A DNA stretch of 40,470 nucleotides from a virus, in the UHGV virus genome UHGV-0078430; one strand, 5' to 3'. Every line of letters starts with the position of its first letter. The first letter of the stretch is position 1. Below are positions 1 to 37,071 of the stretch, piece by piece. The position numbers were made by a program, and so were the translations under genes. The notes beneath the pieces are model-generated. The model did no database searches, had not been told where the DNA came from, and saw nothing but the letters and a program-made list of their open reading frames with translations.

Positions 1-49
1 TTATAAGTTCATCTTTAAATGATAATCAATTGCATGGGAGTTTATCACC

Positions 50-1570
50 ATGAGGAGCGTAATTACATACTTGAGATTCTCATCAGCCATACAAGGCGCT
101 GAAGGTGCAGATTCAACCAGACGACAAAATGACCTGTTCAAGCAGTGGCTGAAGAAGAATAGCGATGCTCAAGTAGTAGCGTCTTTCAGTGATGAAGGTC
201 TATCCGGTTACAAAGGTAAGCATCTTACTGGTCAGTTTGGTGACATGTTAGCCCGTATTGAGTCTGGGGAGTTTCCAGAAGGTACGATTTTGCTTGTTGA
301 GAGTATCGACCGTATAGGCCGCTTAGAACACCTTGAAACAGAAGCCTTGATGAATCGCATCTTAGGCAACGGGTTAGAGATTCACACGCTACAAGATGGT
401 CTTATCTACACAAAGGATGCTTTAGCCGATGATTTAGGAATCTCAATCATCCAGCGTGTCAAAGCCTACATAGCGCATCAGGAGAGTAAGCAGAAGTCTT
501 TCCGTGTTAGCGAGAAGTGGAAACAACGTGCAAAACTTGCCCTTGCTGGTGAACAACGTTTAACAAAGATGGTTCCCGGATGGATTGACCCCGATACTCT
601 CAAACTCAATGAACACGCTGAGACTGTAAGACTGATTTTCAAGCTGCTGCTAAGTGGTGAAAGTCTGCATAACATTGCACGTCACCTTCAAAGCAACGGT
701 ATAAAGTCGTTTAGTCGCCGTAAAGATGCTAACGGGTTCAGTGTTCATTCTGTGCGTACTATCTTAAGGTCAGAGACAACGATAGGCACACTACCAGCAT
801 CACAACGTAATGACCGCCCCGCTATACCGAACTACTACGAAGCCGCCATAGACGCTGCAACGTTCAATAAAGCTCAAGAAATCCTCGATAAAAATCGTAA
901 AGGCCGTACACCTGCAAGTGATAACCCATTAACGATTAACATCTTCAAGGGATTATTCCGGTGTCAGTGTGGGGCTAGTGTCCATCCTACCGGAACAAAG
1001 AATAAGTATGCTGGGGTCTACAGGTGCAATAACCACTTAGACGGTCGCTGTGATGTTCCACCGCTGAAGCGTAAACCGTTTGATAAGTGGATGCTTGAAA
1101 ATTTTCTAGGAATGATTGACGTGGGGAATGATGGAGAAGCAGAGGGGAAGATTGCATCTCTACAGCATGAGGTTGAAATTGTCACAACCAGAATCAAGAA
1201 AGCTACCGCCCTACTTCTTGAGATGGATGATATTGATGAACTAAAAATTCAGATTAAGGAACTGAACCAGAGGCGTACAGAGCTACAGACCACGATTGAT
1301 AACATGAGGCGTAAGGCTTCACTCACTGATAAGGAACTACCCCAGCTTAAAGATATTGACCTGACAACTAAAGCGGGTCGTGTCGAGTGTCAGTTGATTT
1401 TGTCCAAACATCTAAAAGGGCTTACATTGGGTAAGGATTCGGTAATTGTAACGCTACAGAACGACACTGAAATCACCATACCTACAAACCCGTTACCGCT
1501 AAATGATGGAACATCAATATTTGAAATTGCTGAAAAAGAGCTACTAGAAATAGACGCTTATCAACTGTAA
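50..1570 (+). CDS. large serine recombinase (integrase/resolvase family)
   Basis: N-terminal YLRFSSAIQ catalytic-serine motif and ESIDRIGR motif typical of resolvase-type catalytic domain; 506 aa with Cys-rich zinc-ribbon-like block (CQCGAS...YRCNNHLDGRC) and coiled-coil C-terminus as in large serine recombinases. Confidence 0.85.
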   Translation: MRSVITYLRFSSAIQGAEGADSTRRQNDLFKQWLKKNSDAQVVASFSDEGLSGYKGKHLTGQFGDMLARIESGEFPEGTILLVESIDRIGRLEHLETEALMNRILGNGLEIHTLQDGLIYTKDALADDLGISIIQRVKAYIAHQESKQKSFRVSEKWKQRAKLALAGEQRLTKMVPGWIDPDTLKLNEHAETVRLIFKLLLSGESLHNIARHLQSNGIKSFSRRKDANGFSVHSVRTILRSETTIGTLPASQRNDRPAIPNYYEAAIDAATFNKAQEILDKNRKGRTPASDNPLTINIFKGLFRCQCGASVHPTGTKNKYAGVYRCNNHLDGRCDVPPLKRKPFDKWMLENFLGMIDVGNDGEAEGKIASLQHEVEIVTTRIKKATALLLEMDDIDELKIQIKELNQRRTELQTTIDNMRRKASLTDKELPQLKDIDLTTKAGRVECQLILSKHLKGLTLGKDSVIVTLQNDTEITIPTNPLPLNDGTSIFEIAEKELLEIDAYQL

Positions 1571-1575
1571 TTTTC

Positions 1576-1598
1576 AGGGGCTATGAAGCCCCTTTTTA
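1576..1598 (+). terminator. putative Rho-independent terminator after recombinase gene
   Basis: 7-bp stem aggggct/agcccct with 4-nt loop followed by ttttta. Confidence 0.45.
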
Positions 1599-1602
1599 TG
1601 TC

Positions 1603-2394
1603 TCAATAAGTGCCCTTCTTGTTCGGATTTACAGAAAACTTCCGTAAAGCATTACCCGACTTAAGCACCTTTGAAGCTTGCTCATTAGCTGAGGCTGTGA
1701 AGGTGCTCTCACCATTTTTAACACTAACGCTCTTAGAGCACGTTACACGGGCTTTTAGCGCTTCATCTGATAACTCACTTGCCGAATAGCTAAAAAGCTC
1801 TTTACAGGTCAGCATAGGGCTTCCAAGACTCGTTGTAGTGTTGCCAGTGTTCTTTTTACTGGTAGCACCACCATCATTCGTAGTCGCGGCTTTTCCAGTT
1901 GCAGCCGAGATATCAGTCTGCCCCACAATAGCTTTAAAGTTAATTTCCTGAAAAGTTAGCTGGATTCTTAGGCCATTTGAAATACCAACATCTTTAGAGG
2001 CTTTAAAGCTCGTGATAATGGAATCATCAATTTTAATTCCGTCTTTACAGATGACCGAAATAATCTGCTTCTGGTCACGCCAGTTTTCCAGAGTGTCGAT
2101 GAAGTTTTCTACCAGCTTATTATCTCTTGAGATAAGGATACTACCGGATTCACCAACCACAACCACACCACTAATAGTAATTGTTCTGGGTGAACGCATT
2201 ACATTATCTGTTACAGTCTGCCCTGATTGCATATTTTGAGTGGTCACCATCATAGGGCTGTCATATTCCATGTTTTCAGTTGCTGATAGTGACAAGAAAT
2301 TATCTGGTTGGCCTTGTAGATGAAAGTAAACGCCATCTTTACCAGTGTAACGAAGCTGATTAGTGTAAATCATTAAATTCTCCTTTGATTTCAA
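1603..2394 (-). CDS. hypothetical protein, possibly distal-tail (Dit)-like by position
   Basis: 263-aa ORF immediately downstream of tape-measure-like gene, Ser/Thr-rich C-terminal half; function inferred only from position. Confidence 0.4.
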
Positions 2395-2455
2395 AGGCTT
2401 AGTGTATTTTAATCATTTTTAACCAAGCCTTTGATATATAAGTGTTTTCTCTGCT

Positions 2456-2519
2456 AAGCGTGTTGTACGTAAATTCTATTTTTCAGTGTGGGTATTAGCT
2501 TTACAGATTTCACGTAGCA
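2456..2519 (-). promoter_or_regulatory. conserved upstream element, copy 1
   Basis: about 64 bp sharing blocks (tgctacgtgaaatct, atacccac, tttacgta, cacgctta on the minus strand) with a second copy at 4601-4663; lies upstream of ORF 1603-2394. Confidence 0.45.
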
Positions 2520-2530
2520 TTCGACTATTA

Positions 2531-4579
2531 TTAATCATCTTCTGGGAATGATGAACTTAATAGCGTAGCTTCTGCATATTGGTCGTAGATATTACTGCTA
2601 AAGGTCATAAAGCTGGTTTCATCTGGTTTAATGGCAACTTCACCACCAAGTGAAACTTTCACAGGCTCCTGAATACGTTTGCTCAAAGCACTAATTTCAT
2701 CTCTCAGGCTTTGGATATCCGTATTCGTTAATGCCGCATCTTGTCTCATGGTGATTAATTCTGGATGCTGGAAGTTAGCAAGATTCATAGCTGCACTACT
2801 AAACCAACCTTTAACATCGTCCATAGTGAACACTGGTTTAAGTCCAGACTCTTTAGCTAGCTCTGGTAATTTAGCTTGTGCTTCCATTCGTTCAGGTGTA
2901 GAAGCTAATCTCTCATAACCTGCATAGATAGCACTACCAGCTAATAACATATTCCCAAGATTAAACCTTGATGGTTTCCCGTTCTTTCTATTCACGTTAT
3001 CCGCTGTAGTATCAGCGACCTGACCTAATCTTGTGATAGCAGTCATAAGCCCGTAAATACTTCTGGTTACACCAACAACTTTATTCACAGCAATAACACC
3101 AGCCAAGACTTTTAAACTATTAATCAAGCCAGAACCTAAAGCATCAACTACTTTCTTTTGTTCATCGGTTAAACCACGGTAAGCTAATGTCACCTCATCA
3201 AAGAATGCTCTTACCCTGTAGCTGATATCAGTCAATGAATCCACACCACTTGACATAGAAGTCATGAGACTACCAAGAGATTCACCAAGACTTTTACCGC
3301 TTCCACCTAAACTATTTAAAAGATTGGTTAAGCTTCTTGTGAAATCTTGAAGACCATTTTCAGAACCTCTGAAGATACTATCAAGCGTGGTATTCCAAGA
3401 GTTTTTCAGGTTCCCTAGTTGTGCCTGTGTACTTTCTGAAATAGCTTTCCAGCCGCCTTTAGCGGTGATTTGTCTATTCAGTTCCTGAGTGACCTTCTGA
3501 AGAGTATCGGCAGATTTTAAAGCCCCCTTCTTCATGGCATCAAATAATTCCTGTTCAGTCTTTCCGGTTGCTTTAGCGAATACCTGAACCATACCAGGAA
3601 CAGCTTCAGCTAATTGCCCCTTAAGCTCTTCAGCCATAATCTGACCCTTACCAGCCATCTGTGATAATGCTGTCAGTGCTCGCTTAATCTCTTCTTCACT
3701 TCGACCCATTAAACGAGAATAGCCAATCATATTTCTAAAAAGTTCTTCAGAACCTTGAATACCCATAGATTCTTTAGCTGAAGCACCAAAACCAGCAAAC
3801 TGTGATTGCAGTTCAGCGATATCTAAACCCGTTGTTTGAGCTAATGACTTTGTGAAATCTTTTACTTGACCTGCATCTTTATCAAATACGAAATCAATAC
3901 TTCTTTCCGATGATGCACGTTGAAGGCCAACTTCCATTACTCGCTGATAAGCGGATAGTACAGCCTGAAAGCTGATAAATGCACCTGCTGCTCTAACCGC
4001 TGCTGAAGACAGGTTATCAAGGCTGCTAGCTGCTCTGTCACTATTAATGCTGGTGGATGTATGACCTCTGGCTTTAGCAATTGCTTCTCTGACTGAAGCG
4101 TTTAACTGAGCTAACTTCTCATTGAATTTTGAAGAATCCATTGACCCGGCTTTAGCAGATAGCCCGTAAAACTGACTCTTAATGTATTTCTCGACAATTG
4201 GGTTAAGGCCTTTTAGCTTGCTCATATTCGCTGAGTAAGCTGCTGTGATTGCTCTGTTTCCGCTAATTCGTGGCTGTCTTGGTTGTTTTGGAGGATTAAC
4301 AGTGTCATTAAATCTGGTGGTAAACTGGAAAGCTTTAGTATTTCTTGCTCTCTGTTCAATCTTGTCAAAGGCCTTATTAAACTTCCTTTCAAGTTGCCCT
4401 AAAGAACTTGTCAAATTACTATCAAGCTGTTTTGTATTAATCCTGAAACCTTTATTTAGGTTCTTTTCAATTCTTTGTGCTGACTGCAAAGCTGCCTTTT
4501 CAACTCTTTGCAGTCCCTTAATAACGTTCTCGCTGAAGCCTAGCTCAACGATAAAACTATCAACTTTAAATTGTGCCAT
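2531..4579 (-). CDS. phage tail tape-measure-like protein
   Basis: 682 aa, coiled-coil N-terminus, central region resembling tape-measure domain (GLDIAELQSQFAGFGASAKESMG ... ALSQMAGKGQIMAEELKGQLAEAVPG ... FAKATGKTEQELFDAMKKG), Gly/Ser-rich segment; assignment from recalled motif pattern. Confidence 0.6.
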   Translation of the reverse strand: MAQFKVDSFIVELGFSENVIKGLQRVEKAALQSAQRIEKNLNKGFRINTKQLDSNLTSSLGQLERKFNKAFDKIEQRARNTKAFQFTTRFNDTVNPPKQPRQPRISGNRAITAAYSANMSKLKGLNPIVEKYIKSQFYGLSAKAGSMDSSKFNEKLAQLNASVREAIAKARGHTSTSINSDRAASSLDNLSSAAVRAAGAFISFQAVLSAYQRVMEVGLQRASSERSIDFVFDKDAGQVKDFTKSLAQTTGLDIAELQSQFAGFGASAKESMGIQGSEELFRNMIGYSRLMGRSEEEIKRALTALSQMAGKGQIMAEELKGQLAEAVPGMVQVFAKATGKTEQELFDAMKKGALKSADTLQKVTQELNRQITAKGGWKAISESTQAQLGNLKNSWNTTLDSIFRGSENGLQDFTRSLTNLLNSLGGSGKSLGESLGSLMTSMSSGVDSLTDISYRVRAFFDEVTLAYRGLTDEQKKVVDALGSGLINSLKVLAGVIAVNKVVGVTRSIYGLMTAITRLGQVADTTADNVNRKNGKPSRFNLGNMLLAGSAIYAGYERLASTPERMEAQAKLPELAKESGLKPVFTMDDVKGWFSSAAMNLANFQHPELITMRQDAALTNTDIQSLRDEISALSKRIQEPVKVSLGGEVAIKPDETSFMTFSSNIYDQYAEATLLSSSFPEDD

Positions 4580-4600
4580 TGTTCATATTTCACCTCTGTT

Positions 4601-4663
4601 AAGCGTGAGCTACGTAAAAAATAATTTTTGGTGGGTATATCTGTTCAGGAGATTTCACGTAGC
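4601..4663 (-). promoter_or_regulatory. conserved upstream element, copy 2
   Basis: second copy of the 2456-2519 element, ends about 20 nt upstream of the tape-measure-like start codon; contains 7-bp inverted repeat gctacgt/acgtagc. Confidence 0.45.
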
Positions 4664-4789
4664 ACACATACAAAAAAGGGAGAAACTACCGAATAATATC
4701 GATAATCTCTCCCCGTGTTATAGATTCGATAGAACCTATCTCATACACCCAACCAATTCTATTAGATTCGATTAGAAGCTAATCTCAAA

Positions 4790-4999
4790 TTAATGCCTGA
4801 CAAGATAATGTAGTTCCGTTTCACCTATAATTTGAGCATCGGAAGGGATACGGTCGATACACCACTTTGGAATCTTGCGTGTTTTTGGTTTGCGTGAGGT
4901 GATAATTTGATGTTTGGTTTTAATTCTTAAGGCTGGCTTAGTTTGTAACTTTAAGTTTTCACAAACAGACCGGATAGTCTCTAAACGTTCTTCAAACAT
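4790..4999 (-). CDS. hypothetical small basic protein
   Basis: 69-aa ORF between two larger minus-strand genes; no recognisable motif. Confidence 0.3.
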   Translation of the reverse strand: MFEERLETIRSVCENLKLQTKPALRIKTKHQIITSRKPKTRKIPKWCIDRIPSDAQIIGETELHYLVRH

Positions 5000-5022
5000 T
5001 AATCACCTCTTTTAATTCATAA

Positions 5023-5733
5023 TTAAAGCACCTTTGAGTACTTCGTTGAAATCTTCGTTAACTGCTCAATATCGGCTTGCATAGCAATCTTCTTCTGCGT
5101 TTCATATCCACTAACAAGCTCTTTCATGCTATCAAGTTCTTTTCTAAGTTTTTGCTTTAACTTATCCAGTTTACCGGAATAATGCTTAGTCAAATTAGCT
5201 TCAGCTAACTGAAGAATCTCTTCGTCTGTCTTATCAGTCATCAGGATAAATTGACCAGAACCCCTTAATGCTTGTCTGACATCAATTAACCGGAACCCTT
5301 CAGGGATACTTTGAAGAACTTTAGGAACGTCTTCAATCGCTGTACCAAAACCATCATTAAAGTTTCCTTCATAATAGATAAACGGGTTTGACTTAATCTC
5401 GTAAGCAATATCATATTCTGAAGGTTTCGAGGTTTCTTCGAAGTTCTTAACAGCATCGTAAGCAATATCAAGTCGAATACGCTGTTCTTTTAGCCGTGGG
5501 TAATATTCACGCTCAAGCTCAAATAGTGCTTCAGTTTTGCAAACATCAGGCATCTCCTGAGGTTCAGGATACACAAAGATGGTTGTTTTTGGTGACATCT
5601 TTAGCGATTGCTCAAGCTTAATTCTTTCATCGTGTTCTTTACGCTGGATAGTGATAGCTGGATGTTCAGTCTGTGGTGACCAGTCCCCGAAGCTATCAAT
5701 CTTTCTGCCGTTAATAAATAAATCATTTGTCAT
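5023..5733 (-). CDS. hypothetical protein
   Basis: 236-aa ORF with Lys/Glu-rich coiled-coil-like C-terminus; no recognisable catalytic motif. Confidence 0.5.
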   Translation of the reverse strand: MTNDLFINGRKIDSFGDWSPQTEHPAITIQRKEHDERIKLEQSLKMSPKTTIFVYPEPQEMPDVCKTEALFELEREYYPRLKEQRIRLDIAYDAVKNFEETSKPSEYDIAYEIKSNPFIYYEGNFNDGFGTAIEDVPKVLQSIPEGFRLIDVRQALRGSGQFILMTDKTDEEILQLAEANLTKHYSGKLDKLKQKLRKELDSMKELVSGYETQKKIAMQADIEQLTKISTKYSKVL

Positions 5734-5940
5734 TATAACTTCCTCTAAGTGTGGTTATTTCTTAATAGAGCACCTTCAACGCCAATACACTTAGAAGATG
5801 ACTTAACGATTTATTAAAGATGCTCTATTAAGAAAAGCCCTAAACATAGGTTCATCCTTATCTGTGAAGGGCTTTGGAGTTTGCTTATAACGTTAACGGA
5901 GTTTCAGGAAAAACTTTCTTTAAAAGCTCTGTTTAAAAAC

Positions 5941-5973
5941 TCTTAAAGAAACGCCCTAACTCATGATTAGGGC
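5941..5973 (-). terminator. putative terminator between upstream 4-gene operon and downstream genes
   Basis: stem gccctaa/ttagggc with 7-nt loop; on the minus strand followed by gtttcttt. Confidence 0.35.
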
Positions 5974-6304
5974 AAAGCTGTAAGGGTTCAATAATGAATG
6001 ATTAAGCACTTTTTGATATATAGCCTATCTAGTGGGCTAAATAGGCCATGTAGCGAAAAGCATTGCACCTTTCAGAATGTTCGGTATAGAACATACCTCA
6101 CCAACTCAGAATATCCATCCATCCATCGGATTATTGAAAGAAAAATAAGAGAGAATTACTCTCCCATAATTAAAATTATGTCATGCTTAAGGTTATTTGT
6201 CAACAGCTTTTTAACAGATTGGTAACATTAATTCTTATTTACCGTGTTACCTACCCAGCAACCAACAAATAAACCCAAAGCTGTCCAAGCAATTATTAAG
6301 CCCA

Positions 6305-6649
6305 TTAATGCACCACCTTCGAATCCGTCACCAAAATATTGTCAGCGTACAAAATTGCTATAGCTGCCTTGAGATATCCTTCAGGGCTAACGCTGTATTT
6401 GTTCGTTTGCTCGATAACCAATCTTTTCATGTTGCTGTCTTTAATTGGTAGCATCATTCGAGGCTCGTTAAACTCCACCGACTGAATAAAGTCAGAGATG
6501 CTTTCCGCATTATCAGCCATTAACTCTAACAACTTATCAAAGTCAATGCTAACACCTACATCAGTGAAAGCCTGAATCATCATAGCGGTGTCGTTATCAA
6601 CCATAATTTGCATTGGGTAATTGTTCATTTTTAAATTCCTATAAAACAC
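6305..6649 (-). CDS. hypothetical protein
   Basis: 114-aa ORF, last gene of a co-directional 4-gene cluster; true start may be internal Met (MNNYPMQ). Confidence 0.45.
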   Translation of the reverse strand: MFYRNLKMNNYPMQIMVDNDTAMMIQAFTDVGVSIDFDKLLELMADNAESISDFIQSVEFNEPRMMLPIKDSNMKRLVIEQTNKYSVSPEGYLKAAIAILYADNILVTDSKVVH

Positions 6650-6765
6650 ATCTTAAATCTGCCAAAATAGCCATTCTGAGGCCAGTAACCATGCGGGTTA
6701 CAGAGGGAGTGAGACACCTTAGTAATAGGGTAGCTCATCTTTGAGTCTCACTCATTCTTACAGGC

Positions 6766-7152
6766 TTACACAGACGCTTTAATCTTGTAGTATTGACTGC
6801 GTGATAAACCGTATTTCTCAGAAATATAACTTTGTGATTGTCCTTTGGTGATTGCATCAATGATTAAATCTTTATCGTATCTTTTACCGTTGGCTTTGTG
6901 CTTGTCGCCACTTTTAATAGAGTTGAAATTCTCAATTAATTTAATGGCGTCTTTAAGGTCGTCTTCGTAAGCATAATCAAAACCCCTGATAAACTCGAAA
7001 TCACCATTATCTTTTTGTGCTTCAGTCCAGATATCAAATCTTGAGGCTAATTGCTGGTGGGTAAACTTGGGCTTATTGGTTTGTGTTACGTCTTTCCAGA
7101 CTTTACCGTCAAATCTTACCAAATGGTCACGATGTTTATAAAAGTCATACAT
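6766..7152 (-). CDS. hypothetical protein with C-terminal helix-turn-helix
   Basis: 128 aa; C-terminus ISEKYGLSRSQYYKIK resembles HTH of resolvase/terminase-small-subunit/transposase-type DNA-binding domains. Confidence 0.5.
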   Translation of the reverse strand: MYDFYKHRDHLVRFDGKVWKDVTQTNKPKFTHQQLASRFDIWTEAQKDNGDFEFIRGFDYAYEDDLKDAIKLIENFNSIKSGDKHKANGKRYDKDLIIDAITKGQSQSYISEKYGLSRSQYYKIKASV

Positions 7153-7430
7153 TAAACCTCCATCGCTAATTTGTGAATTTTAATGCTTAGTAACCTTGCT
7201 AAATCCAGTCCAAAAGCATTTAAAGATTTCAGATTATCAAGGTCGGCTTGCTCAATCCTGATATGGTGTCTTGCAGCCTCTAAGCGGCTATTAAGCAAAT
7301 CTTGTTCGTTAATATCACGGTTAATTGCAAGCTTCATCACTGCTGAGTGTGGCAGACCTGTAATGTTTTTGATTCGGTTCAGTTCATCAAAGGCTGTCTT
7401 TGTAACTCTGGTTAAAGTGTGTTTGCTCAT
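7152..7430 (-). CDS. hypothetical protein
   Basis: 92-aa ORF; start overlaps stop region of upstream gene and stop abuts next gene (translational coupling). Confidence 0.45.
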   Translation of the reverse strand: MSKHTLTRVTKTAFDELNRIKNITGLPHSAVMKLAINRDINEQDLLNSRLEAARHHIRIEQADLDNLKSLNAFGLDLARLLSIKIHKLAMEV

Positions 7431-7431
7431 T

Positions 7432-7989
7432 TTAAAATTCCTCTGTAACTAAATACGGGTCAAACTCGAAATCTGGTTGCTCGTTTTCCATTGGCTCAAT
7501 ATTTCCAACGGCAATATGATGCTCAACAACACCAATTAACTTTGCGCACATTACAGCAAGCAAAGCGCAATATTTATCGCTTGGTAATTCATGGCTAAGT
7601 CTGGTTGCTTGACGCTGAAGATGATTTGTCACGGTGGCTGAGTTAATTTCATCAAGACTTCGCAGTAAATAAAAAACCTTCTGGTTGTATTTCTGGTGAC
7701 CCTCGCTTCTGCAAAATCCAATAAAAATATCATCAAGCTTGCTCGGTAGTTGCGCGTAGCTGTCAAAGCTAGCCAGATAATTCTTGATGCTGTTCTTTGT
7801 TGTTTTGCGTGTTGGCATGTAACGGTTCCTCGGTGTAATTGCCCGAATTACTTCGTCAATGCCTTTGCGTTCTTTCTTGGTAAACTTGGGTAATTCGTGG
7901 CTGGTGGGGGAGTTTGTGTAAGCGTAGGAGTTGTGCTTGTTGCGTTCTCTTGATGCCTGAAGCATCGCTCTAAATTCTGCGTCTCTCAT
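7432..7989 (-). CDS. hypothetical protein
   Basis: 185-aa ORF, first gene of the 4-gene cluster; divergent promoter region upstream (7990-8112). Confidence 0.5.
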   Translation of the reverse strand: MRDAEFRAMLQASRERNKHNSYAYTNSPTSHELPKFTKKERKGIDEVIRAITPRNRYMPTRKTTKNSIKNYLASFDSYAQLPSKLDDIFIGFCRSEGHQKYNQKVFYLLRSLDEINSATVTNHLQRQATRLSHELPSDKYCALLAVMCAKLIGVVEHHIAVGNIEPMENEQPDFEFDPYLVTEEF

Positions 7990-8076
7990 TCATATTCTGA
8001 CCCTCATAAGATGTTATTATTCTGTTAACTTATATAGACAATACTAGCATTTTCAAAGACTAATGTCAAGCATTTT

Positions 8077-8106
8077 TTAACATTTTATTAACATCTGTGG
8101 TATAAT
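8077..8106 (+). promoter_or_regulatory. putative sigma70 promoter with extended -10
   Basis: TGgTATAAT at 8098-8106 with ttaaca -35-like hexamer about 17-18 bp upstream. Confidence 0.4.
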
Positions 8107-8286
8107 GGTTCTATGGGGAGAGTAAAATATAAAGGCGTGGCTATGATTTGGTCACATGGTTATTGCATTGCACACAGACCTCTTCAATCGCTCTGTAACG
8201 AGTTAAACAGCCTCTTAAGGTCAACTATAAGGTCAGGTACTTTTTTGTGTCAGAATGCGATTGAGAGCGTCTTACAAGGAAAACTA

Positions 8287-8463
8287 ATGGTAAATCTCCC
8301 TCCTGAGCTGGGGTCACCTGATGTGTGGGCTGGTGGAGGTGTGGGTCTGTTCGCAGGTCTGTTACTTCGCTACGTCCTCGTCAGGGTGCTTGTTGTCTTT
8401 AGACTGTTCGGTCGTACATGGACGCTTGACCTTAAGGATAACAACCACACAGACCCCCGTTAA
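8287..8463 (+). CDS. small hydrophobic (single-pass membrane-like) protein
   Basis: 58-aa ORF (MVNLPPELGSPDVWAGGGVGLFAGLLLRYVLVRVLVVF...) preceded by AAGGA RBS; sits in a locally GC-rich patch inside the AT-rich island, downstream of a strong promoter; both overlapping frames are open so coding status is uncertain. Confidence 0.3.
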   Translation: MVNLPPELGSPDVWAGGGVGLFAGLLLRYVLVRVLVVFRLFGRTWTLDLKDNNHTDPR

Positions 8464-8476
8464 ACTCCCTTCAAAA

Positions 8477-8515
8477 CCCCCTGTACGAGATGGTATAGGG
8501 GTATCTTTAGCATTT
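8477..8515 (+). terminator. weak terminator-like hairpin
   Basis: cccct/agggg stem with 14-nt loop followed by T-rich tatctttagcatttt. Confidence 0.25.
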
Positions 8516-8583
8516 TGTGCTATCTATTAAAAAACAGCTTGACATAACCGGAAAGCTGTATCTATCAAGTATTCACCTCTCTG

Positions 8584-8755
8584 ACAGTAATTGCTAAAAG
8601 TTCTTATTTTTCAATAAGTTGTAATTAGCCATATATAGAGAACTGACAAGCCTCTTCACAGTTAACTCTGAAACCTTAACAGTAAATTCTAAAAGTTCTT
8701 ATTTTTCAATGAGTTGTAATTAGCCAATATAAAGGACTGACAAGACCCTTCACAG
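8584..8755. repeat. tandem direct repeat, 2 copies of about 78 bp at 95-bp period
   Basis: 8584-8661 and 8679-8755 align along their length (acagtaa.t.ctaaaagttcttatttttcaat.agttgtaattagcca...gactgacaag.c.cttcacag). Confidence 0.7.
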
Positions 8756-8783
8756 AGAACTTCCTGGACTCACTAAGATACAA

Positions 8784-8990
8784 GGCGATAACCCCAGAAA
8801 GGGAGAGCCACCTTCTTAACCGACTTCTTAAACAATCTTTACAGACCCCGTTCACCAGTCTCAATATTTTTATTTCTCGCTCTTCGTTTGTTGCTCGTTT
8901 CTATTATTGAGGGGGTTTGAAAAACCTCTGTAAAATAACCCTTCCAGTAAAAAGCGAATAACCCCAGACAGGGGAAATCGCCTCTTTAAC
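8784..8990. repeat. two copies of about 36-bp element
   Basis: gcgataaccccagaaagggagagccaccttcttaac (8784-8820) and gcgaataaccccagacaggggaaatcgcctctttaac (8954-8990). Confidence 0.4.
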
Positions 8991-9021
8991 ATTCTCGTAA
9001 TCAGTGCTCTATATGAGAATT

Positions 9022-9684
9022 TTAGCCCAACCTTTGAGCAATCCTGTATGACGTGCTCAGAGGCATTCTGAGAGCATCTGCAATGCACTTAATGGGTTTG
9101 CCTTGCCTGTATAGTTTTATGAAGCTGTCGAGCGTCTCAGGTGGGTAAATGGTGGGTCTTCCTCTTAAGCCTCCTCTGTTAATGATGGTTAACGGTAATA
9201 GCGTGTCAGCACAGCAAACCATCTGCGTAATTTCATGCTTACGTGGTTCTTTTTTAAAAACAACGACTGCACTTGGAAACGGTGAACGAATAACAAGCCT
9301 GTTATGGCCTGCTGGTGGAAGGTATTTAACTGCACGATGAAGAATACGGATTTCATGGCAAAGCGGGTTTGTGAAGATGTGCTTAAGCCAGTATATGGTT
9401 TGGGGTCGGTACGGTATCAGGAATACCGCTAAATCTGCTTCAGACGCTTTTACGAGGAATGTTTTAGTGTCGCTGTATGGTGGGTTACAGAATACCTTTT
9501 CACCAACCCATGACTGATTGTGGATATCATCGGTGAACCGTGGCAACAATGCGTCATGCTCAGTTGCAGCACCATCCAGACTGAAACTAAACTCACGGTG
9601 TAAGTTCTTGAATAATAAAAATGGAGTTCTCCAGTAATCAGAACCCCCATGATGTTTCCCGATTAAAATACACTCAATTGACAT
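9022..9684 (-). CDS. phage-type DNA N6-adenine methyltransferase (Dam family) with C-terminal HTH
   Basis: FCNPPYSD catalytic motif, DGAATEHDALLPRF upstream motif typical of phage Dam-like MTases; C-terminal HTH-like tail (LSTSYRIAQRLG). Confidence 0.8.
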   Translation of the reverse strand: MSIECILIGKHHGGSDYWRTPFLLFKNLHREFSFSLDGAATEHDALLPRFTDDIHNQSWVGEKVFCNPPYSDTKTFLVKASEADLAVFLIPYRPQTIYWLKHIFTNPLCHEIRILHRAVKYLPPAGHNRLVIRSPFPSAVVVFKKEPRKHEITQMVCCADTLLPLTIINRGGLRGRPTIYPPETLDSFIKLYRQGKPIKCIADALRMPLSTSYRIAQRLG

Positions 9685-10001
9685 AAGAAATAAAAATTTT
9701 TATTGCAATCACTCTTGACAAGGTTTACTCTCTTTTAAGAGATACTTAACAGGCTTTCTAAACGGATATCCTTTCTGGGATATCTATCTCTTATCTTAAA
9801 AGTCTTTATAGATACTTTAAAGATATCTGTATTAAATCTGTACAGTAACTTTTCAGACTCTGAAAATTTTTATAAAATCGTAATAGCCCCTCTTCAAATT
9901 CCCCTTCTAAAAATCTTCGAAAATATCTATCACAGGTCTATACCTGCTAAGTACCCGCCACACCAGCTATGTGACCCCCTTTGCAGAATTTTAAAATATC
10001 T

Positions 10002-10766
10002 ATGAGGTTTATTCGATAGAGGTTGGTACAAGCCCAACTAACCGAATCAACTATTGACTTTCTTCATAGTATCTGTTAACTCCACCTCAAGAAACCTTCA
10101 TCACACTTCAAAGCATCTATCAAGAAGATTTAACCTATCAATAGCTGTAACATTTTATAGTTCTGTGAAGTCCTATCCAGTTTTCTCTGTAACAGACACA
10201 AACTTCTGTGACCTTATGTATCAATGACTTACAAGACATGCTCTCAAGGTGCTGTATAGCCTCTTATCAGCCAATACACAAAACCCTTATAAATCAGTAC
10301 TGATACATATACAGTGTGTTTTTAACATAATAGCTGTTTTACGCACTAATCGTGTTCTACATGAAATCTGTATAGATATTAAGGTGTCTGTAAGTGATTT
10401 TTTAAGAGGAACTACGAAGGAACTATGAGGTTGATTCCTAGAACTAACCGAATCAACTATAACCATCACCTCCTAACTTTCACATAGCTGATTGTTATCT
10501 CTTGCAACTGTAACGTATGGTGACCAAACATCTATATATCGTTATATAGCCCTGTATATAGCACTTTTCTAGGAGTCTGGAGAGGGACGACTAACACGAT
10601 ACAGTTTACCCTGAAAAGAGACTTCACAGATTCTTTATATATTTCAATAAGTTAGGGTAAAAAGAGACTATGCTGATACTGCATAGAATCTGTGTAAAAC
10701 TGCTTAGATACTTGGGAAAATGCCTTTAAATTGCATAGTCATAGGGGTTGGAACAAGCCCAACTAC
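10002..10766. repeat. family of three related 25-55-bp elements in an ORF-poor region
   Basis: 10002-10056 atgaggtttattcgatagaggttggtacaagcccaactaaccgaatcaactat; 10424-10460 atgaggttgattcctagaactaaccgaatcaactat; 10741-10766 ataggggttggaacaagcccaacta; core gttgg-N7-ccaac dyad. Confidence 0.5.
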
Positions 10767-11054
10767 ACCTGATATTGTCCTGTAATTAACAGGTCTCTTA
10801 GAAAACCGAATAGACTTCATTCAAGGGTCATTGAAGTCATAATCATTTCAGTAGAAAAACCAGGTCTCGATTTTAAATGCAAATAGCAATCATATTCAAT
10901 AAGGCAAGACGATCAGGATCAGTGAAAATGTCATTTTTGGCGTAATTACCCTTACTTTATGCATGGCCTTAACAAAGACATCATCTTTCCGTTGCAGATC
11001 TTCGCCCTTTCAAATAACGTACTTTACAACTTTCCCGAACAAGGAGTTGTGCCC

Positions 11055-11469: not shown

Positions 11470-12018
11470 TCAGCTAGCTGGAAACTTTTTATACAGAGTT
11501 GAGAGCCCTACTCCATACGTTTTTGATACGCTTTGTCGTGATTCACCGGTTGCCATCCGCTCCCCCATTTCCCGCCATTGCTCATCCGTGAACTTAGGCC
11601 TGCGACCACCAACTCGCCCTTTTGCCCTGGCTACGGCCAGCCCTGCTAAGGTACGTTCGCTATTAAGATCAGATTCATATTGTGCTGCGGAAAGGATGTT
11701 ACGAAAGTTATAGCGGCCGCTGGCTGTTTTGAGATCCACGCCATCGGTAATACTGCGGAAGTTGATACCCTTTTCCTGTAACTGCTGGAACATCAACAGC
11801 GCATGCAGAACGTTGCGGCCTATCCTGTCCAGCTTCCAGACCACCAGTTCATCCCCCGGCTGCATAGTGGCGATCAGCCGTTTTAGAACCGGCCGATTCG
11901 ATTTCCTCCCGCTGGCATGCTCTTCAAAAATTTTCTCACAACCCGCTGACTTGAGCGCCGTTAGTTGCAATTCAGTGTCCTGGTGGTTTGTTGATACTCG
12001 GGCATAACCGTAAATCAT
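11470..12018 (-). CDS. site-specific DNA invertase (Pin/Gin/Hin/Cin family small serine recombinase)
   Basis: MIYGYARVSTNHQ catalytic-Ser N-terminus, VVWKLDRIGR motif, C-terminal HTH (VGLSTLYKK); start trimmed to internal ATG at 12018 with AGGAG RBS 7 nt upstream. Confidence 0.9.
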   Translation of the reverse strand: MIYGYARVSTNHQDTELQLTALKSAGCEKIFEEHASGRKSNRPVLKRLIATMQPGDELVVWKLDRIGRNVLHALLMFQQLQEKGINFRSITDGVDLKTASGRYNFRNILSAAQYESDLNSERTLAGLAVARAKGRVGGRRPKFTDEQWREMGERMATGESRQSVSKTYGVGLSTLYKKFPAS

Positions 12019-12021
12019 GGG

Positions 12022-12048
12022 ATTTCTCCTGTTATGAAAACAGGAGAA
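12022..12048. other. 27-bp inverted repeat overlapping the invertase RBS
   Basis: minus strand tttctcctgtt-ttcat-aacaggagaaa, 11-bp arms with 5-bp spacer immediately upstream of the invertase start codon. Confidence 0.3.
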
Positions 12049-12077
12049 ACGGCGAAGCATCACCAGATTTTTGATGG

Positions 12078-12103
12078 TTATAAAAAAGGTTGGTTTGGGA
12101 AAC
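12078..12103. other. candidate hix/gix-like recombination site
   Basis: ttataaaaaaggttggtttgggaaac resembles my recollection of 26-bp hix/gix sites (TTATCAAAAACC..GGTTT..); only one copy found. Confidence 0.3.
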
Positions 12104-12152
12104 ACGAAGTATGAATGTAGTGCACCACATAAATTTCGAATCTTTGGCAAGC

Positions 12153-12183
12153 AAAACTGGATCACTAATAGTGATCCAGTTTT
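12153..12183. other. perfect 31-bp palindrome
   Basis: aaaactggatcact-aat-agtgatccagtttt, 14-bp arms; downstream of tail-fibre stop; terminator or protein-binding site. Confidence 0.4.
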
Positions 12184-12251
12184 AAATACCAATCGAAGGT
12201 TAAATGGTGGGCTTGTTGAGCCTAGAGCCTGTACATAAATTTTTTATTTTA

Positions 12252-14687
12252 CTATTCCATCTCGTCCATTCTCTTCATGACCATTGCGATATTCCGTCGT
12301 TGAAGCGCCGCCTCCATCACCAGAGCCTCCTCATATCGGATGCCGTATTTCTCACCGACAACGTAAGATTCAGCTATCAGCTTTTCATGCGCTGGTTCGG
12401 TCATGTTCCACAGCTCTGGTGAAACCTGTTTCCCATCGTCATCATAAACCGCTGGCACGACTTCATACACAGCAGGGACTGATTCATAAACAGCGGGAAT
12501 GGTTTCTTCTGGGTCGTAGCAAAAGAAAGCAAAACTATGAGGATCAAGGCCGTGGCGTTCAAAAGCCTCCTTGGCACGCTGAGCAATAATTCCAAAGTGC
12601 CAACGAGCACCGTCATCACCCTTGGCCTCTATCCTGTCGATAAACTGGAACTGCACGAAATCTACTTCCGCCCAGGCGTCCAGGATAATATCGGCATACG
12701 AGTCTTCCATCAGCCTGGGATCGGATACCGCCTCTGGCTCGAGGGACCCACGTGCCAGCATGACTGGACGTGATTTTTGTAGCTCATCGGATGTAACGGT
12801 GAACGCCGTCTGAGTGAATCCGCCAGCCCATATGGATGAGCTTGTCCCGACGCTATACGTGTTAGTCGCAACCGGCTGAACATTCCCGGTCACTCGAAGA
12901 GGCGAAAATACATCACTGACCGTAGCCGCAAATCGGGCTAACTCAGTACCCGGCGAATCCTCTGTAGAACCAGAATAGAGACGAACGCCGTTTTTACTGA
13001 ATATCGTGGTCGCAGATAAATCGTTAGCACCCTTTATCACGCCAATTCCAGCCTGCCAGTCCGCAGAACTGGGGCCTGTGACATCAGTGATGCTGTGCAG
13101 AGTTCCGCCCATCCGCCCGAACGGATCTGTAACGTTATCAAGATGCACCCCTCTTATCGTTATTTTACCAGTACTGCCGCCACCAGATACAAACCCTACA
13201 GGGCAATCCTTAAAAGTTACTCCACTTAACTTCGCGTATTTCCTGTTGATGATTGCGGCTCTGCTAACGTCTCTGCATACCAGCCCATTAATTACCGTAT
13301 CGTCCCCATTACCATACTCTCGGCCAGTCGATGTGCCACTGGTTGAGGCGGTGACAGATAAGCCATCTTCCGCGTTGGCTATCTGAATGTTAGAACCCCG
13401 GCAGTGCCGCTCTTCTATCCAGACGCCGTTTTTAAGTCGTCCGCCTTCATCACCGATAGCAACGATATTATTAAAATTAACAAATGGTGCCTTAATGTGC
13501 AGTCCGATTAACGTTGTGTAATCAGCACCAAACCGGTTTTGAACGACCGTTATGTCAGATACGTTTGCCCACGCACTCGATCCTCTTCCTTCTAAACTAC
13601 CAATCGGGCCTTGCTTGATACGAACACCCGCCCCAGGACAGCCAACGTCTCCAAAGTCAGAAACGTAGACATTAGATACTTTTGGCGCAATAGACATAAC
13701 ATCAACACCAGCCCAGGGGTTATTTGGCTCATCAAGCTGGCCGAAGTTAAATACGAAAATGTTATTAAGATGGAATGCGCGGCTGACAGATCCGTTATCT
13801 TTAATATCAATCCCATCAGCGCCGGTATTTTCTGACCAGTAACCATCAATAACGCACCCTTTGTAGCCGCCGTTCTGCAAACCCAGCCCATAGTGGGAGC
13901 AATTTTTAACCTTTAGGTTGTTGATGCTGAGACCCTCAATCCCCGCGCCGACCACCCCCTCTGTTTGTCTTACATAAGACGCAGACGTGAAATCTCCATG
14001 ATAGTTACCGTCAATGCAGATGTTGTGCAGACCTACACCATGAACTTTCGTAATGCCGTTTTGCAGCGGAGCCTTGGACCACTGGATAACGCCGTATGCC
14101 GAGTTGGTTGCATAAGCCTGAATGGTGGTTGAATTCCACCCCTGCCCACACAGGATTACGTTGTCGTAAGGAATGCGAAGAGCTGCAACGCGGATGGTCG
14201 CGGTCGAAGAGCTGAAATCAGACTCATCCATATGAACCTGATAAAGGCTTTTGGTGAAAACAATTCTTCCACCGCCAGCAGCGCTTAGTTCTGCTGCTTT
14301 TTGCATAATTTTATCGGCGTTAGATTTAGCGACAGTGATCGATACCAATCCACTTACAACACCAAATGATTCGGCTGTAACTTGAATACCTTCTAATCCA
14401 AGGTTTGTGGTAATCGCTGTCGCCAGCTTTGCCACCAGTCCATCAACGTCACCATCATCGAGCGCGTCCAGTTCGGCGTTCGCGATAAACTGCCCCAGTA
14501 CAGCCGCCATCGTCGACGGTTGGCGCAGCGCTTTACTGACCTGTGCGCTGGATGCTTTACCCGAGGAGAATCCTTTCTTCAGTGCGGTTAGCGTCTCCCA
14601 TTCCTCCTGCGAGGTAACATTTGCATTAGCATCTGTCGCAAACGCTTTAAAATCATTAGTTCCAGCCATTAAAGTAATCTCCCCCAT
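12252..14687 (-). CDS. tail fibre / tailspike protein with beta-helix-like central domain
   Basis: 811 aa, Gly/Asn/Val-rich repetitive central region typical of parallel beta-helix tailspikes, C-terminal tandem PAVYE repeats; last gene of tail module next to invertase. Confidence 0.7.
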   Translation of the reverse strand: MGEITLMAGTNDFKAFATDANANVTSQEEWETLTALKKGFSSGKASSAQVSKALRQPSTMAAVLGQFIANAELDALDDGDVDGLVAKLATAITTNLGLEGIQVTAESFGVVSGLVSITVAKSNADKIMQKAAELSAAGGGRIVFTKSLYQVHMDESDFSSSTATIRVAALRIPYDNVILCGQGWNSTTIQAYATNSAYGVIQWSKAPLQNGITKVHGVGLHNICIDGNYHGDFTSASYVRQTEGVVGAGIEGLSINNLKVKNCSHYGLGLQNGGYKGCVIDGYWSENTGADGIDIKDNGSVSRAFHLNNIFVFNFGQLDEPNNPWAGVDVMSIAPKVSNVYVSDFGDVGCPGAGVRIKQGPIGSLEGRGSSAWANVSDITVVQNRFGADYTTLIGLHIKAPFVNFNNIVAIGDEGGRLKNGVWIEERHCRGSNIQIANAEDGLSVTASTSGTSTGREYGNGDDTVINGLVCRDVSRAAIINRKYAKLSGVTFKDCPVGFVSGGGSTGKITIRGVHLDNVTDPFGRMGGTLHSITDVTGPSSADWQAGIGVIKGANDLSATTIFSKNGVRLYSGSTEDSPGTELARFAATVSDVFSPLRVTGNVQPVATNTYSVGTSSSIWAGGFTQTAFTVTSDELQKSRPVMLARGSLEPEAVSDPRLMEDSYADIILDAWAEVDFVQFQFIDRIEAKGDDGARWHFGIIAQRAKEAFERHGLDPHSFAFFCYDPEETIPAVYESVPAVYEVVPAVYDDDGKQVSPELWNMTEPAHEKLIAESYVVGEKYGIRYEEALVMEAALQRRNIAMVMKRMDEME

Positions 14688-15349
14688 GCGCCGTCATCAA
14701 AACCGGCGATGTATTCGTTATCCATGTCAAATCCAAAGAATTTTGTTCCTTCGGACGGTGTTTCGACCGAGGGTGTTTCAACGCCGCCAGCCCATACACC
14801 AGCAGCTTTAACGGTGAGATAACCCTGTTTGATAGCGGCTATCAGTTCGAGTGACACATCAGAAATATCAGTCTCGGGAAAAACCCAGACCGATATCGTC
14901 ATGTCCTGGTTGTCGACAATTTGCATCCTCAGGCCTGAGCCTGCAGTCGCAGCGTCAAGGATGGGAGGCAGAGAGTCGTTCCGACCGTCCCAGTTGTTGA
15001 TAGCGATTTTCGCTTTCAGAATGATGCGGTACGTCTCATCGCTTAGCGTCGTATAGCCAGAATCAGGATCATATGGCCCTTGCCAGATGCCCTGGTCATA
15101 CCCAAGCCCGTCAGTGTCCCAGCTGAAATAAACTCCGCTAATTGGCTGGCTGACTATGCGACTGCGTCCGATCCACAGACCGAGGATGTCGAGCTGTACA
15201 CCGACAGCAGTATCGATATCGAAGGCTGTTATAAGCCCTGACATAGTGCTGGACACATCAATCAGCGGGCGGGTGCTCAGATCTATATGGTCAAAAAAGA
15301 GTGGCTTGGTAGCGTGGTAGTTAGTGATCAGTTCGGTGTATTTGCTCAT
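14669..15349 (-). CDS. baseplate protein (P2 gpI / Mu gp48-like by position)
   Basis: 226 aa, between baseplate J-like gene and tail fibre gene as in P2/Mu gene order. Confidence 0.5.
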   Translation of the reverse strand: MSKYTELITNYHATKPLFFDHIDLSTRPLIDVSSTMSGLITAFDIDTAVGVQLDILGLWIGRSRIVSQPISGVYFSWDTDGLGYDQGIWQGPYDPDSGYTTLSDETYRIILKAKIAINNWDGRNDSLPPILDAATAGSGLRMQIVDNQDMTISVWVFPETDISDVSLELIAAIKQGYLTVKAAGVWAGGVETPSVETPSEGTKFFGFDMDNEYIAGFDDGAWGRLL

Positions 15350-36996: not shown

Positions 36997-37071
36997 TGGC
37001 GGGACAGGAAGGATTCGAACCTTCGACCAATCGGTTAACAGCCGATCTCACAACCTCTGTGCTTCTGACCC
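36997..37071 (-). tRNA. tRNA-Asn-like (anticodon GUU), possibly phage-borne or degenerate
   Basis: manual cloverleaf: acceptor GGGTCAG/CTGTCCC (one T-T mismatch), D-arm with GG, anticodon stem ATCGG/CCGAT with loop CTGTTAA, T-arm GAAGG-TTCGAAT-CCTTC, encoded CCA. Confidence 0.45.

Follow-up and report, generated by a model that had tools for sequence, protein, structure and literature searches.

A probable Dam-type methyltransferase with a resolvase-type DNA-binding tail in a GATC-free, Felix O1-related integrative element

Introduction

A gene of the Dam family that is kept under selection in a genome without GATC raises the question of which site is methylated, and on whose DNA. Such a gene is present in the virus genome UHGV-0078430, of which the whole analysed stretch of 40,470 nucleotides is here called the window. 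The window was found to be chromosome of the Escherichia coli type. The gene, on the minus strand at 9022-9684, very probably encodes a small phage 'Dam' N6-adenine methyltransferase of family PF05869 fused to a DNA-binding domain (DBD) of the serine-recombinase type. Its host is a discrete satellite-like integrative element, which had been overlooked in a preliminary description of this DNA made from the letters alone. The enzyme class is ordinary, and it is the GATC paradox together with the candidate satellite that sharpens the question of its role.

Results

A Dam-type catalytic domain and a resolvase-type tail

The gene and its two parts are located as follows.

9022..9684, minus strand: complete coding sequence of the methyltransferase-DBD fusion (open reading frame, ORF, from ATG to stop, 220 amino acids plus stop; matches in Pfam, PHROG and PADLOC)
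9175..9684, minus strand: catalytic N6-adenine methyltransferase domain, residues 1-170 (family matches, motifs, AlphaFold and Foldseek)
9025..9174, minus strand: predicted linker, minor-groove arm (RGGLRGRPTIY) and three-helix helix-turn-helix (HTH), residues 171-220 (HTH_7, profile against the PDB, AlphaFold)

Residues 15-91 of the protein matched the Pfam Dam family PF05869 (55.7 bits, the cut-off being 28.1; E 6.5e-15), the match spanning only model positions 9-95 of 169. PHROG 111, 'DNA methyltransferase', matched residues 15-151 (E 5.9e-27), and the 'orphan methyltransferase' model of PADLOC was matched with an E value of 5.1e-14. The sequence DYWRTP was found at residues 16-21, the motif-I-like FSLDGAA at residues 34-40 and motif IV, NPPY, at residues 67-70 (nucleotides 9475-9486); the order of motif I and then motif IV is that of PF05869. 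Across the fusion subfamily D37, N67, P68 and P69 were invariant. The equivalog cut-off of the NCBIfam model TIGR01712 (phage_N6A_met) was missed by a wide margin, with 44 bits against 97.05, which makes the methylase a diverged member of the family and not an equivalog. An AlphaFold model based on a 15-sequence alignment (mean predicted local distance difference test score, pLDDT, of 84.6) consisted of a Rossmann-type domain, a linker and a three-helix bundle. When the catalytic domain of this model was compared with the PDB using Foldseek, the best matches were the N6-adenine methyltransferases PCIF1, Type I HsdM, CamA and M.TaqI, and in BFVD phage N6A methyltransferases were matched. The public annotation of the gene is already 'DNA N-6-adenine-methyltransferase'. 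A phage-type NPPY methyltransferase had also been placed at 9022-9684 in the preliminary description, and here the limits of the ORF proved exact, with the PF05869 match and the NPPY at residues 67-70 agreeing with the assignment.

For the C-terminal part, the single sequence gave a match to HTH_7 (PF02796) at residues 175-215 that was just below the threshold (21.4 bits versus 23.8, E 2.8e-4). A profile was made from nine tails of the family and searched against the solved structures of the PDB. It matched residues 142-195 of the Sin/Bin3 resolvase (2r0q) with an E value of 1.2e-7, and the GRP arm was included in the alignment, with 'KGVYKGRPLLY' of 2r0q facing 'RGGLRGRPTIY' of the methylase. 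Further matches were gamma-delta resolvase (1res, E 1.5e-4), Tn3 resolvase (1.7e-4) and Hin (0.04). In the AlphaFold model a flexible linker of low confidence at residues 174-177 preceded the three-helix bundle at 182-219, the helices of which (182-193, 198-204 and 209-219) had pLDDT values of 85-97. The recognition helix, PLSTSYRIAQRL, was nearly invariant across alleles. The tail thus appears to be a DBD of the serine-recombinase type, with a GRP arm and a three-helix HTH, and the C-terminal HTH that had been noted earlier is upheld by the profile match to resolvase DBDs and by the modelled bundle. A local fusion with the HTH of the invertase of a neighbouring prophage, 2 kb away, was also considered and was rejected, as BLASTP found no similarity.

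Conservation and selection

An exhaustive search of representative sequences gave 2683 relatives, nearly all of which were ~150-190 amino acids long and covered only residues ~15-145. Full-length relatives that include the tail were found in six further clusters at 50% identity, being 37-64% identical to the query, and the fusion was encoded in species-representative genomes of Winslowiella, Erwinia and Pseudocitrobacter. In the E. coli/Shigella clade the protein had 215-220 amino acids in all clusters among those listed (120/120). The frame of 220-222 amino acids was kept at identities down to 63% within E. coli and at 37-51% in other genera. Of 47 related loci, 43 had an intact 220-amino-acid frame; two were frameshifted, and the other short ones were cut by contig ends. 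Among 41 alleles the catalytic part and the tail had median pairwise Nei-Gojobori ratios of nonsynonymous to synonymous substitutions (dN/dS) of 0.23 and 0.21, respectively. The intact frame in most loci, together with the low dN/dS in both domains, excludes a chance ORF, and both domains are under purifying selection.

Absence of a partner nuclease

No endonuclease candidate was detected with Pfam, NCBIfam, PHROGs and PADLOC among the ORFs of the element and the module representatives of ~45 related loci, the sole exception of nuclease type being HNH_3 homing-type proteins of 90-95 amino acids, which were present in some relatives only. With PADLOC, the orphan methyltransferase model was the only component of a defence system that was found. 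The genes adjoining the methylase differed between relatives as a result of module swapping, which argues against an obligate partner. The methylase is very probably not half of a restriction-modification pair; it appears to be solitary, a nuclease of a new fold being conceivable. In the preliminary description no adjacent endonuclease had been seen either, and the closer search of the element and of the modules of its relatives gave the same outcome. With a genuine HTH and no recognisable cognate nuclease, calling the enzyme an 'orphan' that is DNA-targeted or regulatory was reasonable. That it is solitary and at the same time does not act on GATC of its own element is, in our judgement, probable.

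The host element lacks GATC and shares DNA with Felix O1-like phages

The element and those of its parts that are referred to below are located as follows.

1..10833, no strand: integrative element of ~10.9 kb (left junction ~40 nucleotides before the start of the window; GATC-free throughout)
50..1570, plus strand: large serine recombinase (integrase), at the element end away from the methylase (Resolvase, Recombinase and Zn_ribbon_recom domains; PHROG 95 integrase, E 2e-79)
1603..2394, minus strand: Dit-like/baseplate protein, homologous to a gene of Felix O1-like phages
2531..4579, minus strand: tape-measure protein, homologous to a gene of Felix O1-like phages
9685..9860, no strand: control region adjoining the methylase gene on its upstream side (-35-like hexamers, phage-like segment, repeats, palindrome)
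9715-9722, no strand: overlapping -35-like hexamers TTGACA/TTGTCA in the control region
9804-9845, no strand: palindrome in the control region, which also has GATATC repeats
9861..10819, no strand: AT-rich non-coding right arm, 85-97% conserved in relatives
10820..10833, no strand: attR core TTCAAGGGTCATTG, which closes the element on the right and duplicates the first tonB codons

No GATC was observed in the element, where a maximal-order Markov model gives an expectation of 40.6 and base composition one of 38.5 (Poisson P ~2e-18). Within the window GATC first occurs at 10911, just beyond the element, and the rest of the window contained ~4 per kb. In every relative of the E. coli clade that was examined, a GATC-free interval of 11.7-13.7 kb coincided with the element, and contigs consisting only of the element (11.5-12.7 kb) had 0 GATC. 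Distant relatives in other genera do contain GATC. The same absence was found in Felix O1-like phages: phage PHB11 (87.5 kb, 38.9% G+C) had 0 GATC versus 300 expected, and the first 50 kb of Felix O1 had 0. The element family and the phage had one avoidance spectrum in common: CCWGG and GGWCC were avoided, and counts were zero or near zero for over 20 palindromic hexamers, including CAGCTG, CCATGG, CTGCAG, GAATTC, GAGCTC, GGTACC and TCCGGA.

The element and these phages were also found to share genes and non-coding DNA. The Dit-like protein had 70% amino acid identity to the Felixounavirus protein encoded directly after the tape-measure gene, with 86% nucleotide identity over 468 bp, and the tape-measure protein was 29% identical to its Felixounavirus counterpart over the full length. 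Upstream of the methylase, the 63 nucleotides at 9745-9807 shared 86% identity with a unique intergenic segment of the phages that separates divergent operons (PHB11 8395-8455, Felix O1 21578-21638), in a match that includes the overlapping TTGACA/TTGTCA hexamers. Positions 9838-9878 and 9974-10000 matched the large non-coding repeat region of these phages. The methylase had no homologue in PHB11. Based on the shared tail genes, the shared non-coding segments and the common avoidance spectrum, we infer that the element is a candidate satellite of Felixounavirus, a mobile island that would long have been under the same constraints as the virulent Felix O1-like phage and would have borrowed its cis-acting DNA. 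The literature that was searched gave nothing relevant on a satellite linked to Felix O1, on the absence of GATC in Felixounavirus or on fusions of Dam with an HTH, and in it we found neither the fusion nor the GATC-free, Felix O1-related element that carries it described before.

The non-coding region of the Felix O1-like phages is packed with degenerate CTGTTAAG/CTTGTTAG repeats (L129 1-700 and the end of L130 for PHB11; L131 12305-13928 for Felix O1), and the first 510 bp of PHB11 contained 8 copies of CTGTTAA. This phage repeat region may be a packaging or replication signal.

Proposed function and rival explanations

Among small phage enzymes of this kind, T1 Dam and HP1 Dam are specific for GATC. 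As GATC is absent from both the element and its presumed helper, an enzyme with this specificity would have no substrate on either. M.EcoVT2Dam, the orphan methylase of an Stx phage, also targets GATC (PMC6602927). In the preliminary description it was suggested that the element might be protected by the methylase; at the canonical site, of which there are 0 against ~40 expected, this is impossible, and for self-protection a changed specificity would be needed. Since there is no GATC substrate on the element or the presumed helper and the gene is kept under purifying selection, a different or relaxed target obtained through the added domain is the simplest reconciliation. Our favoured explanation is a solitary, catalytically competent methylase that would be expressed during replication and whose choice of target would be set by the fused DBD. 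We hold it tentatively, with somewhat less than even confidence, a grading that applies to the whole chain of steps that follows.

Infection by a Felix O1-like helper would be the most plausible trigger of activation of the element, and the methylase would be transcribed early thereafter. An early action in the replicative phase is suggested by the position of the gene as the first of its array and by the initiator gene directly downstream in about half of the relatives. The DBD would dock the enzyme on DNA, and the catalytic domain would then flip an adenine out of the helix and methylate it with S-adenosylmethionine. The fused domain, which occupies the C-terminal place of the target-recognition domain of M.TaqI-type (gamma) enzymes, would confer the new or relaxed target. 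The methylation could serve to shield the replicating or packaged DNA of the element from restriction at sites that avoidance is unable to eliminate, for example asymmetric Type I, III and IIS sites, which form the plausible protective niche because most palindromic restriction sites are already avoided. Alternatively, it could mark the control region of the element itself, with the DBD tethering the enzyme there. Altered expression of host genes by the methylase is possible. A more far-reaching proposal is that the methylase is a conserved early gene of a family of E. coli satellites not described before, which would live as parasites of virulent Felix O1-like phages, a PLE-like way of life in Enterobacteria. 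Its recombinase-derived DBD would direct adenine methylation to sites of the helper or satellite and thereby control replication and packaging, or sabotage the helper, so that the enzyme would be programmed by its DBD and not be a paralogue of Dam. Taken in full, this proposal is unlikely. M.EcoGII was considered as a non-specific analogue and was set aside, being a class-beta enzyme of another family (PMC7544214).

Several observations weigh against our favoured explanation. The score below the TIGR01712 cut-off suggests that function is not simply transferable from the canonical phage N6A methyltransferases. No palindromic site was clearly freed from avoidance in the element as compared with the methylase-less phage (ATGCAT gave 0.40 versus 0.0, and for AGCGCT and GCTAGC the expected values are tiny), and protection at a palindromic site thus gains no positive support. 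In the window allele neither a Shine-Dalgarno sequence nor a good sigma-70 promoter was found before the ATG. The dN/dS of 0.23 corresponds to only moderate constraint, and two of the 47 alleles are frameshifted. No close relative of the methylase was found in the viral contigs of IMG/VR, which gave only ordinary single-domain phage Dam genes, and none of the metagenomic contigs tested had terminal overlaps, and so no circular (excised) contigs were seen among them.

The HTH could instead act mainly as a transcription factor or as a cofactor of recombination, with an operator in the control region or near att, and with autoregulation, an operon switch or directionality of the integrase as its purpose, methylation being secondary or reinforcing. 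Methyltransferases with a regulatory HTH are indeed known, as in the M.SsoII and M.EcoRII types, where it is N-terminal. Next to the gene is a divergent control region in which GATATC and TAYAGATAY repeats are clustered and palindromes occur, the methylase and integrase genes would face each other across attP once the element is excised, and the recognition helix is better conserved than the rest of the protein. This explanation is unlikely; the upstream regions of divergent clades have no repeat or operator in common despite their near-identical recognition helices, the catalytic motifs are fully conserved and as strongly constrained as the tail, and the domain is the DNA-binding module of resolvases and not that of classical repressors. 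Slightly less likely still, in our view, is an ordinary GATC-specific phage Dam that acts on the host chromosome, where rapid methylation of GATC would disable strand discrimination by MutH and sequestration by SeqA and leave the element and its helper untouched. Membership in PF05869 and the GATC specificity of M.EcoVT2Dam (PMC6602927) fit with it, and the absence of GATC from the element and from Felix O1-like phages would make the enzyme harmless to both. Its benefit is doubtful in E. coli, which already has Dam, and the score well below the equivalog cut-off and the extra sequence-reading domain, which canonical members lack, also speak against it. Furthermore, element and phage have more than 20 avoided sites in common, GATC being just one among them, and its avoidance gives no specific pointer to a function related to Dam.

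Two further explanations can be given little weight. The methylase would be the modifying partner in a restriction or defence system that has escaped recognition if its nuclease were p185, p236, one of the small HNH_3 proteins or the 221-amino-acid cargo protein of locus L002. That several neighbours have no detectable family, and that HNH_3 proteins occur in some relatives, leaves room for such a system. It is nevertheless very unlikely, as the candidate partners are not conserved together with the methylase and the adjacent modules are swapped, as PADLOC finds only the orphan methylase model, and as the HNH_3 proteins, with 90-95 amino acids, are of the homing-endonuclease type. A decaying, functionless remnant in a cryptic prophage fragment is hardly credible, even with the two frameshifted alleles, the weak translation signals of the window allele and the viral contigs without a close relative. 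Against it stand the frame of 220-222 amino acids, kept over wide divergence with dN/dS of ~0.23, the size, gene order and strict site avoidance of the element, which are kept despite mosaic exchange, and its presence at three or more insertion sites. Among these explanations a solitary methylase directed by its fused DBD is the one that we continue to favour.

Boundaries, content and spread of the element

Compared with the empty tonB-yciI site of K-12 and with strain 2017.18.04CC (locus L002, at 3950-4060), the element was found to be inserted exactly at the tonB start codon. The order of its genes is the recombinase, the Dit-like protein, the tape-measure protein, several small proteins without a family, the divergent promoter region, the methylase and a 1.1-kb AT-rich arm. 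The methylase gene lies 1.1 kb inside the right end and opens the single-strand gene array of the element. This order recurred in ~45 loci from genomes and metagenomes, the modules of which were strongly mosaic. The recombinases of the relatives fell into three allele classes (92-96%, 33-35% and 28% identity), which matched different insertion sites; at least three such sites were found, namely tonB, yecE and wrbA-ymdF. In a set of 5426 complete E. coli genomes, matches were obtained in 525 with the 2-kb methylase region, in 206 with the methylase coding sequence alone and in 455 with the Dit-like gene. One locus that was found by means of the Dit-like gene instead of the methylase also has the methylase.

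About half of the relatives, namely locus L111 (at 1291-2319) and ~20 others, encode an O/DnaD-like replication initiator (PHROG 8102, E 5e-11) immediately downstream of the methylase. In this alternative module the initiator and a protein of 98 amino acids take the place of a 1-kb non-coding stretch and p185/p92, and the element family accordingly has two alternative replication/regulation modules. Of the features that characterise phage satellites, the element family has a large serine recombinase, a size of ~10.9 kb and a replication function, the last only in the alternative module of relatives. No capsid or terminase matches were found with Pfam and PHROGs among the proteins of the element.

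Some further observations were made at the ends of the element. The insertion, with its duplication of TTCAAGGGTCATTG, cuts tonB off from its native promoter. The left end of the element contains at 18-33 the Fur-box-like sequence AATGATAATCAATTGC (13/16 matches to the consensus), as well as promoter-like hexamers that face tonB. The element may now control the expression of TonB. Some relatives encode an extra protein of 221 amino acids without a family, as L002 does at 14632-15297. Its gene, a possible cargo gene, is flanked by the conserved right arm and attR and still belongs to the GATC-free interval. Beyond yciI the window contains a second, unrelated prophage (11470-40470) with normal GATC density, which has a Gin/Hin-type invertase at 11470-12192, tail genes and a tRNA-Asn at 36997-37071.

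Control region and non-coding DNA

The heptamer CTGTTAA/TTAACAG recurs in the region upstream of the methylase, yet it is scattered through the phage as well and is clustered in the non-coding repeat region of the phage. Rfam searches of the whole window and of 7900-10950 for RNA families gave only the unrelated tRNA-Asn.

In the right arm a hairpin module of 47-55 nucleotides, GTTGG-tacaagc-CCAAC, was found at 10000-10054, with partial copies at 10423-10460, 10741-10765 and 10804-10816. Among relatives it was present, absent, inverted or relocated: in L001, L088, L120 and L123 it sits at the equivalent of ~8146, and in L001, L124 and L125 it is inverted. The module behaves like a tiny mobile or recombining cassette.

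Strong divergent promoters were found at 8069-8041 (minus strand) and 8077-8106 (plus strand), with 11/12 matches and an extended -10. In the stretch 8113-8501 the plus-strand transcript would be convergent to the methylase gene, and it would stop at a terminator-like hairpin at 8478-8501. It covers a conserved small ORF of ~58 amino acids at 8287-8463, the product of which is a hydrophobic, toxin-like or holin-like peptide; substitutions in this ORF were biased by codon position (44/30/15 for positions 3, 1 and 2). In the interval that separates the small ORF from the 3' end of the methylase gene there is a tandem duplication of ~95 bp (8584-8667 and 8679-8761), with copies 83-94% identical, which is conserved in relatives.

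Significance

If the fused domain sets the target, the protein would be a natural minimal methyltransferase re-targeted by a modular DBD, which bears on the evolution of specificity and possibly on tools for targeted N6-methyladenine. The island, apparently unreported, is widespread in E. coli and tied to the Felix O1-like phages that are used in typing and biocontrol of Salmonella and E. coli, and it could affect the outcome of phage therapy.

Comparison with known systems

The closest comparison is with the small phage Dam enzymes of PF05869/TIGR01712, such as M.EcoVT2Dam of the Stx phage VT2-Sa, which have DxWxTP, FxLDxAA and NPPY in the same order and on the same fold as the methylase described here. 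They are likewise carried by phages or mobile elements, lie early in a replication-type module and have no cognate nuclease. The canonical enzymes are ~150-190 amino acids long and have no separate DNA-reading domain, whereas here there are 220 amino acids with a resolvase-type DBD of 50. They methylate GATC on genomes that contain GATC, whereas the element here has none. The tail in turn resembles the DBDs of serine recombinases (Sin/Bin3 2r0q, gamma-delta 1res/1gdt, Tn3 and Hin 1hcr), in which an arm of the form (K/R)G..(K/R)GRP..Y likewise leads into a three-helix HTH, equal in length to the one here. In those proteins the DBD is joined to a recombinase catalytic domain, and here it is joined to a methyltransferase.

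M.SsoII, M.Ecl18kI and M.EcoRII are C5-cytosine methyltransferases with an N-terminal regulatory HTH, and they belong to restriction-modification pairs. What they have in common with the present protein is a methyltransferase with an extra sequence-specific HTH beside a divergent promoter region. Unlike them, the protein here belongs to the N6-adenine enzymes, has its resolvase-type domain at the C-terminus and lacks a nuclease.

On the level of the element, the PLE of Vibrio cholerae, a satellite of the virulent phage ICP1, offers a parallel. It is a chromosomal island of 10-18 kb with a large serine recombinase, a relation to a virulent and not to a temperate phage and a replication initiator, and has no capsid or terminase genes, as is the case here. 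The present element, a candidate satellite, differs from PLE in having tail genes (tape measure, Dit-like) and a methylase and in lacking any sequence relationship to it. As regards GATC, phiX174 and T7-like phages show complete or near-complete counter-selection of this site in a Dam+ host (PMC5014478). Unlike those phages, the GATC-free element described here itself encodes an enzyme of the Dam family, and GATC is one of many palindromes that it avoids.

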